From positions 160,001 to 224,000 of the forward strand of contig JAUVNS010000005.1 in NCBI GenBank assembly GCA_030599585.1: a stretch of DNA of 64,000 bases, given 5' to 3'. The notes under the pieces are model-generated. The model made no database searches, had not been told where the DNA came from, and saw only the letters and a list, made by a program, of their open reading frames with translations. Shown one piece after another: positions 50,844 to 55,445 of the stretch (position 1 is the first letter of the stretch; each line of letters begins with the position of its first letter). A program made the position numbers and the translations under genes. The DNA is from Promethearchaeota archaeon (GTDB lineage Archaea; Asgardarchaeota; Lokiarchaeia; Sigyniarchaeales; SOKP01).

Positions 50844-51692
50844 ATGGAAAATCTCACAATTGTTATTCTTTGTGCAGGTGAAGGGAAACGCGCTAAAGGA
50901 ATTGCGGATGATATCCCGAAGCCATTAATAAAAGTCGAATCATTAAAGAATCAATCTATTCTTACAATTCTAATATCACATTTATATAGATTTGGTATTA
51001 AACCAATTGTAATAGTAACTGGATACTTAGGTAAACAAATTGAGAAAAATATTATATCATCTCAAGCAAAAAACACTTCCAAAAGCGAAACGATAATAAT
51101 CATCAACGCTGGAAATCGATATAAGTTAGGCCCTTTGCATTCTTTTTTGAGCATAACAGGAAATAAACAGGTTTTTAAAACCAACGAACTTTTTCTAGTT
51201 ATTCCGGGAGATACAATTTTTGACTACAAGCTTATGGAAGAAATTTTAAATTTGCTTAAAGAAAATTACGATGAAGCTAATCAGAATTCCATTATTTTTT
51301 ACCGAAGAACTACCAAAATAGCATTAAATAAAGAGACCGAAAAATATAAACTAATGAGTAATAGAATGGTATCTTGTGTAAGAACCAAGGAAAAAGGCTC
51401 AAAACAATATGTCAAAGAAATATATAATAGAAATATGAATGCATCATCAGATGATGAAGAATTCAATCAGATTATCCCGGCGTTCATTATTACTTATGAT
51501 TACGTGAAAAATTTTGAGGATATTGCTAGTAAGATAAAATTGAATAAGATTGTTGATGCAATAAACTTATCAATCAAAAACGATATGGAATTTTCAGCGT
51601 GCAGGGTTAAATCAGATCATAATTTTTACGATATTGATACTGTTCTCGATTTAACATTTTTGAACAGGCATTATAAAAAAAGTGGACAATAG
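50844..51692 (+). CDS. Sugar-phosphate nucleotidyltransferase family protein
   Basis: ILCAGEGKR....PKPL, VTGY, PGD, DIDT motifs; start placed at the ATG at 50844. Confidence 0.8.
   Translation: MENLTIVILCAGEGKRAKGIADDIPKPLIKVESLKNQSILTILISHLYRFGIKPIVIVTGYLGKQIEKNIISSQAKNTSKSETIIIINAGNRYKLGPLHSFLSITGNKQVFKTNELFLVIPGDTIFDYKLMEEILNLLKENYDEANQNSIIFYRRTTKIALNKETEKYKLMSNRMVSCVRTKEKGSKQYVKEIYNRNMNASSDDEEFNQIIPAFIITYDYVKNFEDIASKIKLNKIVDAINLSIKNDMEFSACRVKSDHNFYDIDTVLDLTFLNRHYKKSGQ
51675..51681 (-). terminator. Oligo-T terminator of the candidate ncRNA
   Basis: T7 run 1 nt after the 3' strand of the terminal helix. Confidence 0.55.
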
Positions 51693-52157
51693 TAGCTCCG
51701 ATTATCACAGAAAACTTGTTTCAATGGATCATCTTCTTTGTTCCAATGAATCGCATCTGGGATCAAAGCCCTATTGACTATAAAACTCATTTTAAACGAG
51801 GGCCTTCATGTTTTAATGTCACGTGTAGCAAGTGGAAATATTATTCGTTCAACAAGAGATCAGGCAAAACAGCTTCAAATTACCGTAGACTAACTTTAAT
51901 TAGAACTTGATTGCGCTTCTCTACTAAATAAATGCTTCAGCGTGAAAACTATTGAAAGCGTCCAAAATTAATAACAAATGATTATTGTGTATTCAGCAGT
52001 ATGAAAAAATTAACAAATAAATCCGATTGGAAATCAATGTATACGCACTAACTCTGGGTGAAAAAAATTCCAGATCTTAAGAATCAATTTGCAACAACTA
52101 CTCCGTTGTTTAAATTGCACTCACGTATCAAAAACCAATGATTTAAACTATTGTCCA
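51683..52157 (-). ncRNA. Candidate large structured ncRNA (~475 nt), family unknown
   Basis: 11-bp terminal helix, at least seven internal helices with minus-strand G-U pairs, own TATA box and T7 terminator, no credible ORF. Confidence 0.7.
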
Positions 52158-52178
52158 AATATTTAGTGGGAAATTGTA

Positions 52179-52196
52179 TATTTAAATCTTACTATT
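52179..52196 (-). promoter_or_regulatory. BRE/TATA promoter of the candidate ncRNA
   Basis: Minus-strand AATAGTAAGA-TTTAAATA; the TATA box starts 30 nt upstream of the G at 52156. Confidence 0.6.
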
Positions 52197-52290
52197 AACT
52201 TATATTCATTCTCTTAATTACAGAAATATTAATTTAATCTAATATTATCTCTCAGAAATAAGATAAAGACTAAAAAAGTTCCAATTAAAT

Positions 52291-53714: not shown

Positions 53715-54044
53715 CTAGAGTGATTTTGAGAGGGTTATTTCGATTTTAGAAATTAAATCCTTTTTATTTTTATTATTATAATTGTTTCTGTTGTTTTTTC
53801 GATAGTTATTCCTTTGCCTATTTTCATAGAAGGGACGGCTCCCTAACGAGACCTTTGCTATTTCTACTCCGGGATACATTCGTTTTTTTAAGATTTCAGC
53901 AACTTCAACCGCAGTTGAAATTTCTTCTCCTTCCCCTTTTATTAATAGCGATTTTGTCCCTCCTGAAAATGCAAAAATTGCATCCTTTATAGTTTTCTCC
54001 CGATCTGTTCGATTTCTTATTATTAGGGTTGTACTAATAGGCAT
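53715..54044 (-). CDS. Divergent Alba-family nucleic-acid-binding protein
   Basis: LLIKGEGEEISTAVEVAEILK..., V.LGS, ISKIEITL match the Alba core; Asn/Arg insert in the beta hairpin. Confidence 0.75.
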   Translation of the reverse strand: MPISTTLIIRNRTDREKTIKDAIFAFSGGTKSLLIKGEGEEISTAVEVAEILKKRMYPGVEIAKVSLGSRPFYENRQRNNYRKNNRNNYNNKNKKDLISKIEITLSKSL

Positions 54045-54245: not shown

Positions 54246-55445
54246 TTATAAATTGAATTCAGCACGACTCATTAAATCATCTAATACCTTGCTATATTCA
54301 GAAATCCTTTCCTCGAAATGTTCAATTATTTTTCGTTCATCTGTATCTAGATAATCAAAAAAGGGTGAAATTTTTTCTATTTTTTTGGTAAAATCATTCA
54401 TGATTTTTGTGTACCACTCGTTCGGCTTAGACAATATTTCATTTAGCTTTTTTTTGTATTTCGCCTTCTTTTTATTGAATTCATGATTATTCTTCTCAGC
54501 GTTGAGTTCAGAAAGATTTGTCTCATACTTTTTTAATTCTTTTTCAATTTTTTCTCTAAACTTTGGAATTCTGTAGATTTTTTTGTTGATATCAGGATCC
54601 CATTCATATAAATAGTAATCCTCGGTTTCAGCTTCTATTTCATCGTCGGTTATTTTAATGTCTCTTTTTAAAACCATAATAAGACCGAAATTCCTTTGAA
54701 GTTGAGCAAGATATCTTTTTCGTAAAATTTCGTCTATGTATTTAATTTCAGTTAGAACGCCCTTCATGTTTTTATTGATTTCTTTTACTACTTTATCAAC
54801 ATTTTTAACCATCTTCTCCATAGTGCCTTCAAACTTTAATTCTATTGAGTTTGAATACGTAGCGAACATACCGCGGTCAGGATTTTTCAATCTTATTCCA
54901 GCTATTCCTAAATAATATGATTTAGATTCCTTTTGGCAATGATCAAAAACAAGAGCAATAGCAAATGGGTTAACTCCTTGGTAAAAAAGTTGTGTTTCAA
55001 TATCTCTAGGTGAAAAAATAAATCCGATTCCCGGATGAGTGTGCCACCAGCCTACGAAGAAATCTTCTTTATCATCTTGAATTGCTCTCTCAAAAATCGC
55101 AGTATTAAACTGAGCTGTGTCAACATAATGCTTACTCTTATATTCAACATATGCTCTATCGCCAACCATAACGGGGATTGCATCCTTAATGACTACTTCT
55201 TTATTTTCCTTAATCGACCCAATTAATATACCGTAAACTTCACGCCAGGTTTTTTGAGGAAGGTCGTTGTTCCCGTATCTCATTGCATAACCAACAATGC
55301 GTTTATAAGCGTTGTATGACAAAAATACCGGCGTGATTGCCGGATCAATCCCGTACTTTTGAATGTAGGAATCTCTATTTGACATTTCGATGATTTCATT
55401 AGTATCGGATAATAAATTATCTTCCTTTTCTTTTTGAAGTTTCAA
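54246..55445 (-). CDS. JAMM/MPN+ metalloprotease with long helical C-terminus (Rpn11/CSN5-like)
   Basis: EVYGILIG and VGWWHTHPGIGFIFSPRD (HxH-x7-SxxD), then TQ..YQ, ALVFD. Confidence 0.85.
   Translation of the reverse strand: MKLQKEKEDNLLSDTNEIIEMSNRDSYIQKYGIDPAITPVFLSYNAYKRIVGYAMRYGNNDLPQKTWREVYGILIGSIKENKEVVIKDAIPVMVGDRAYVEYKSKHYVDTAQFNTAIFERAIQDDKEDFFVGWWHTHPGIGFIFSPRDIETQLFYQGVNPFAIALVFDHCQKESKSYYLGIAGIRLKNPDRGMFATYSNSIELKFEGTMEKMVKNVDKVVKEINKNMKGVLTEIKYIDEILRKRYLAQLQRNFGLIMVLKRDIKITDDEIEAETEDYYLYEWDPDINKKIYRIPKFREKIEKELKKYETNLSELNAEKNNHEFNKKKAKYKKKLNEILSKPNEWYTKIMNDFTKKIEKISPFFDYLDTDERKIIEHFEERISEYSKVLDDLMSRAEFNL

Follow-up and report, generated by a model that had tools for sequence, protein, structure and literature searches.

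A predicted single-copy gene for a large structured RNA in one family of Lokiarchaeia

Which gene, if any, occupies the gap between a MobA-like nucleotidyltransferase gene (PF12804; 50808..51692) and a cyclophilin-like gene (PF04126; 52291..52671) in the genome of a Promethearchaeota archaeon? In the window analysed here, a stretch of 64,000 nucleotides from contig JAUVNS010000005.1, both genes lie on the plus strand. An initial annotation had proposed that a structured, undescribed RNA is independently transcribed from the minus strand between them. Relative to this RNA the first gene is a convergent and the second a divergent neighbour, and both lie outside it. Checks of Rfam matches, homologues and copy number did not refute the proposal of an RNA gene and support it. 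On the comparisons described below we consider it very probable that the locus is a stand-alone, single-copy gene for a functional structured RNA.

The predicted non-coding RNA comprises 475 nt (51682..52156, minus strand), its ends being deduced from promoter spacing, terminal helix and U-tract. The archaeal promoter (52179..52197, minus strand) consists of a TATA box, TTTAAATA, at 52186-52179 and of an A-rich element directly upstream, in the position of a BRE, that is conserved among homologues. The RNA is predicted to start with GGAC at 52156. Its ends pair in a terminal helix, P1, with the 5' strand at 52147..52156 and the 3' strand at 51684..51693 on the minus strand; as first read, the helix had 11 bp and joined 52157-52147 to positions down to 51683. 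A C and a run of seven T (51675..51681, minus strand) follow as a U-tract terminator, and a T-rich tract was also present after P1 in the inspected homologues. Promoter, GGAC start, 11-bp terminal pairing and C plus T7 were all found where the initial annotation had placed them. The TATA box starts 29-32 nt ahead of the terminal helix in 58 of 69 homologues, and 34-36 nt ahead of it in 6. A scan of the whole genome (4.85 Mb, both strands) for a TATA box, a U-tract and, enclosing 250-800 nt, a helix with 10 or more Watson-Crick pairs returned three places, one of which was the RNA locus. The co-occurrence of these elements here is more than chance.

Folding energy was only modestly distinguished from that of shuffled sequences, with z-scores of −1.9 for the minus and −1.8 for the plus strand of the source-genome copy; over 20 homologues (12 shuffles each) the means were about −3.0 in sense and −2.0 in antisense direction. 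Since the folding energy of the single sequence is unremarkable, the case for an RNA rests on comparison. No conserved reading frame was found across the homologues. A small protein was rejected as well, the 64-codon plus-strand frame at the locus having no Pfam match and not being conserved.

We extracted 89 full-length homologues of 345-634 nt (median 488), essentially one per genome. By BLAST the element was present in 33 of 36 genomes of the same genus, and when the neighbouring genes were followed, the RNA was found at the same place in every other readable genus of the family, which appears to be GTDB SOKP01 within Lokiarchaeia (Promethearchaeia). A covariance model of the 3' domain matched 85 of 122 family genomes. 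Neither the 23 genomes of other Lokiarchaeia families nor about 125 genomes of other Asgard families gave a match, negatives that bound detection rather than presence, the model missing divergent genera of the home family too. Promoter-plus-motif patterns found no homologue in other families and likewise miss divergent home-family genera; nor was a homologue found in other families beside the orthologous neighbours. A 24-base pattern from the 3' end occurred in 41 records among 185,579 species, nearly all titled Asgard or unclassified archaea, the odd titles being Hod-, Thor-, Odin- and one bacterial. Virus copies were rejected: 105 pattern matches were obtained, none of the 80 inspected had both TATA box and closing helix, and we treated them as chance. 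The 'Asgard' scope given to the RNA at first was thus too wide, as it was detected in one Lokiarchaeia family only.

A MITE, for which dispersed copies would be expected, was rejected: the source genome has a single copy, and one locus was found in 84 of the 85 other positive genomes. The RNA was still 63-76% identical in comparisons in which the next gene's four-fold sites had fallen to 22-45%, near saturation, although identities from gapped alignments run high and the spacer of the promoter itself reached 57-77%. The RNA was kept where the nucleotidyltransferase gene was lost (L063, L066 and L081), as happened in one genus, and in genome G101, where the cyclophilin-like gene has moved away. 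Two loci, L230 (G116:C87) and L231 (G003:C5), had an intact promoter and 5' end and no closing strand within 640 nt; they are possibly truncated or interrupted by an insertion. G116 carries a second, complete copy (L101) besides L230. The longest members, L083-L086 of genus g20, measured 624-634 nt, and an inverted VTT-domain gene adjoins the locus there.

Selection at the level of RNA can be followed in P1. For its first nine pairs in 60 homologues, 532 of 540 cells were formed, as compared with 510 ± 1 in shuffles, and none of 5000 shuffles equalled the observed count. The eight unpaired cells all belonged to one subclade with a shifted register. Two-sided changes were seen at positions 1, 2, 3, 4 (in three ways), 6 (in two ways) and 9, and the compensatory changes were spread over about seven separate branches of the tree. 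In some lineages P1 was lengthened outward by additional matched changes; its length across homologues was 9-12 bp. One-sided changes yielded G-U pairs on the minus strand (L009, L013, L072, L078, L080), never A-C; this identifies the transcribed strand as minus and sustains the orientation claimed at the outset. The 3' strand of P1 runs into the end of the convergent nucleotidyltransferase gene and shares sequence with its final codons and its stop. It was retained where this gene ends elsewhere or is missing, so protein coding does not account for the conservation of P1. The homologues thus carry in their terminal helix the compensatory base changes expected of a functional structured non-coding RNA, and this comparison shows the helix to be under selection as RNA of the minus strand.

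While promoter, P1 and U-tract of the initial fold stood, about half of its internal helices were not conserved. We scored these helices on 26 homologues of the same genus as the fraction of cells paired, given here for the 13 closest and for all 26. AACAAC/GUUGUU (0.99/0.76) and UCUGG/CCAGA (0.97/0.69) held, AUUGG/CCAAU did so in part (0.77-0.83/0.58-0.65), and AUACGU (0.67/0.55), AAUAAU (0.58/0.38) and CGCUUUC (0.65/0.44) had to be given up. AGUUCU/GGAGCU (0.77/0.58) and AAGGCCCU/AGGGCUUU (0.85/0.75) were displaced by a better helix that had been overlooked, GGCUUUGAU/AUCGGAGCU (0.98/0.94), with pair probabilities of 0.98-1.0 in six homologues. This helix stacks on the terminal helix, and GGAGCU finds its partner in GCUUUGA within the 3' arm.

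Behind the 5' strand of P1 follows the most conserved motif of the RNA, CA(U/A)UGG (52135..52140, minus strand), which was present in 67 of 69 homologues and has several possible partners; the spelling GCAUUGG, a few bases behind P1, was found in 68 of 89. Next come the hairpin AACAAC/GUUGUU with its variable loop (52093..52110, minus strand) and the UCUGG/CCAGA hairpin with a U-rich loop, the first internal U-tract (52053..52074, minus strand). In 73 of 89 homologues six or more U follow one another within nt 65-145, with the U-loop hairpin near nt 85-105. Sense-strand runs of seven or more U outnumbered those of seven or more A by 72 to 21 in the homologues and, by prediction, stayed unpaired in a larger share of cases (0.60) than other U (0.42). 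A pseudoknot of U-loop and A-tract, seen by eye in some homologues, had just 4 bp of low-complexity support. Many homologues contained a central hairpin with tandem U.U and one compensatory pair, which was poorly formed in the source-genome copy. A conserved bulged hairpin, UCUUGU...ACACGUGACA, with a kink-loop-like top (51817..51862, minus strand), was recognised in 67 of 89 homologues. It was 96% paired, with covariation not above shuffle, and had U5 in the loop in 47 homologues; the tandem G.A of its top (GUYGA with GAUAC) was intact in under half of the copies.

The 3' arm (51694..51776, minus strand), drawn from comparison and pairing, is a long irregular hairpin stacked on P1. In 59 of 89 homologues its 5' side repeats the RNA's own 5' segment (AAUAG...GCUUUGA and AAUAG...GCAUUGG, respectively), so that the last 20 nt have two possible partners. 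In the source genus the 3' arm was favored over pairing of GCAUUGG with the 3' end; in genus g20 and some others GCAUUGG paired cleanly with the 3' end and extended P1, perfectly through the whole motif in L083-L086. Two partners for one strand may constitute a switch, or may just be the trace of a duplication. In the 3' domain (the R1 covariance-model region) covariation was no greater than in shuffles because the sequence there is so conserved; its helices are compatible with the alignment and not proven by it. Compensatory pairs elsewhere inside the RNA were limited to few helices, and internal covariation was weak.

Does the RNA belong to a known class? With the Rfam 15 covariance models the best E-value in the RNA region was 3, and 12 homologous loci gave no match at E≤1, which leaves the claimed novelty standing. 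Archaeal RNase P RNA (RF00373) and RNase MRP RNA (RF00030) resemble the RNA in single copy, terminal helix, size and U-tract end, and differ in their P4 pseudoknot motifs. RNase P RNA was rejected since the P4 5' motif GAGGAAAGUCC was found in none of 69 homologues, the P4 pseudoknot is absent and the true gene lies elsewhere (C7, 130 bits). The reported absence of RNase P and T-loop hallmarks was confirmed, and C-box motifs were absent as well. SRP RNA had no match at the locus and one at C22 (64 bits, E 1e-13). An expanded 5S rRNA was worth considering because this genome and 100 of 102 family genomes lack an Rfam 5S match; it was rejected once a permuted 5S gene was located at C9, about 121940-122110. 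With tmRNA and Y RNA the RNA has in common that its 5' and 3' ends pair like an acceptor stem, on which a 3' arm stacks. For tmRNA, however, G3.U70, T-loop, tag frame and SmpB are missing: pair 3 is A-U in 59 of 60 homologues, GUUCRA occurs in 2 of 69, no frame is conserved and no SmpB was found. Y RNA was rejected, Ro60 (TROVE, PF05731) not being found in the genome. A retron or RT-template RNA was rejected as no reverse transcriptase is adjacent and PF00078 is sporadic (19 of 84 family genomes).

Guide and snRNA classes did not fit either. A C box (RUGAUGA) was present in 1 of 69 homologues, which led us to reject a box C/D guide; a conserved hairpin ends in ACA, yet by eye it has just a 2-nt bulge below the tandem G.A where an H/ACA guide would have its pocket 14-16 nt from ACA, and an H/ACA guide was rejected too. 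RNAs bound by Sm or Lsm proteins (spliceosomal snRNAs, U7, archaeal SmAP ligands) likewise have unpaired U-tracts by hairpins, and U4 likewise a kink-loop, which is possible in the Asgard RNA. By contrast, the U-tracts of the Asgard RNA lie mostly in hairpin loops, its ends are paired, introns or partners are not known for it, and the RAU4-6GR site is not conserved (18 of 69), for which an Sm-class snRNA was rejected; the Sm-like site at 51969-51962 was kept solely in the closest relatives. No description of the RNA was found in the full-text literature searched. As judged from these sequence comparisons, the RNA is an undescribed family and a member of none of the tested ones.

Some observations concern other genes of the genome. 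The 5S rRNA gene at C9 (minus strand, 38 kb upstream of the window) is circularly permuted: its 5' third comes after the 3' two thirds, a short loop caps helix I, and a flanking stem, AACCACAU/AUGUGGUU, encloses the whole. Other genomes of the family and family f6 share this layout (L144-L163), and due to the permutation the Rfam 5S cut-off is reached in no more than 2 of 102 genomes of the family, as opposed to 8 of 10 in the sister family. Unpermuted 5S genes that exceed the cut-off number just two in the family, L134 (G087:C68) and L143 (G014:C263); they look unlike those of Lokiarchaeia and may be binning contaminants. The SRP RNA (L002:1480-1820, minus strand, G000:C22) scored below the family cut-off of 96.5 bits; its 5' (Alu) part aligned poorly and may be divergent. 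At 3368 nt, the 23S rRNA match (L164, G000:C3:65805-69172) exceeds the model by about 380 nt, which agrees with the expansion segments reported for Asgard archaea (PMC7594248); a distance of 49 kb separates the 16S from the 23S gene. Within the window, an Alba-family gene (53715-54044) adjoins a gene (54246-55445, minus strand) whose 399-aa product has a JAB1/MPN domain and a long, charged C-terminal part.

What might the RNA do? The comparison yields an RNA with its own TATA promoter and U-tract, whose ends are closed by P1 and on whose P1 a long arm stacks; it has a conserved bulged hairpin and loops rich in U, and its middle varies freely. We tentatively read it as a stable RNA that would serve as a scaffold for proteins, with the U-rich loops taking up Lsm rings, a possibility that we rate somewhat short of probable; the initial annotation, too, had suggested an RNP scaffold. 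The closed ends would protect it from exonucleases, and the conserved irregular helices (tandem U.U, G.U, kink-loop-like G.A) would be docking sites for proteins. Oligo-U and many non-coding RNAs are ligands of archaeal Sm proteins (PMC4500138), and U-tracts are where the termination factor aCPSF1 acts, its Lokiarchaeota orthologue included (PMC8716108). Unless covered, internal U-tracts would serve aCPSF1 as termination signals; Sm/Lsm rings bound to the U-rich loops could also hide them from it. The variable middle would be a spacer, and the 3' strand, with the 5' end and the internal copy as alternative partners, may act as a switch by closing and opening the ends. The source genome encodes four Lsm genes (L130-L133) and two L7Ae-family genes, which is weak support since Lsm and L7Ae occur in nearly all archaea. 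Against a scaffold stand the canonical Sm site in only 18 of 69 homologues and the tandem G.A intact in under half; moreover, a length spread of 345-634 nt would not be expected if the RNA formed the tightly folded core of an enzyme or scaffold. A bolder form of the idea, in which the RNA would be the essential RNP core of one Asgard family, bound by Lsm rings, with a kink-loop and an end-opening switch exposing a guide segment, as parallel or forerunner of eukaryotic Sm-class snRNPs, seems quite improbable to us. Four Lsm-family genes in one genome are more than most archaea have, and their products are candidates for a heteromeric ring.

Other readings of the same features are unlikely to different degrees. 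GCAUUGG, freed when the 3' strand takes its internal partner, could pair with another RNA and act in trans as guide or chaperone, as U3 and snR30 base-pair with other RNA in rRNA maturation. That the most conserved motif has no single conserved internal partner would suit such a role, which we deem unlikely, and the 23S rRNA of the source genome contains one perfect match to the 5' 9-mer and another to CAUUGGUU. However, pairing with 23S rRNA was rejected, these two matches showing no covariation across 13 genomes: 23S and RNA vary independently, with mismatches in G130, G129, G116, G083 and three g20 genomes. The motif also pairs well with the RNA's own 3' end in g20 and several other genera, and C/D boxes are missing.

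Rather unlikely is descent from, or duplication of, a known RNA that has drifted past detection, be it RNase P/MRP-like or from a mobile element that was domesticated. In RNase P and MRP the 3' strand of P4 stands just before the 3' strand of P1; the segment GGAGCUAC occupies this very position, and size, terminal helix and housekeeping-like retention recall RNase P. Nevertheless, the source copy had no Rfam match beyond noise at E≤10 and 12 homologues had none at E≤1. The P4 5' motif is missing from 69 of 69, the partner of GGAGCU is nested instead of forming a pseudoknot, a normal RNase P RNA is present in the genome, and no transposase or reverse transcriptase adjoins the locus.

The internal U6+ tract that 73 of 89 homologues have within nt 65-145, the action of aCPSF1 on U-tracts (PMC8716108) and the overlap of the 3' end with the nucleotidyltransferase gene would fit a regulator, acting by early termination at the first internal U-loop or as an aCPSF1/Lsm sponge, with the 3' end, antisense to the convergent stop codon, tuning the operon. 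This appears quite unlikely, as P1, the best-conserved part, requires the full-length RNA and the 3' end is kept where the convergent gene is lost. Finally, a DNA-level element giving no RNA (protein-binding inverted repeats or a MITE remnant), to which the perfect terminal inverted repeat and the weak folding z-score of the source sequence might point, is very improbable given the single copy, the fixed TATA spacing, the U-tract on one strand and helix changes that yield minus-strand G-U in several lineages and no A-C.

OLE, ROOL, GOLLD and the raiA motif are large orphan non-coding RNAs of bacteria, several hundred nucleotides long, with their own promoter and multiple helices, and are thought to work with proteins. 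The RNA described here resembles them in size, promoter, multi-helix fold and discovery by comparison. It differs in that it is archaeal, has no match to their Rfam models and is A+U-rich (27-34% G+C); furthermore, its middle varies far more than theirs and its covariation is weaker.

In conclusion, homologue comparison indicates that the RNA is a real new family, whose mechanism we infer from sequence. Its value is limited by a narrow range, no copy having been detected in the sister family, which appears to hold the cultured strains. Apart from rRNA and the RNAs of RNase P, SRP and mobile elements, archaea are hardly known to have large housekeeping-like RNAs. The retention of an RNA of 350-630 nt in single copy throughout a whole, widespread sediment family of Asgard archaea would point to RNA machinery new to the closest relatives of eukaryotes, a group that raises the question of how snRNPs, RNase MRP and Sm heteromers arose.
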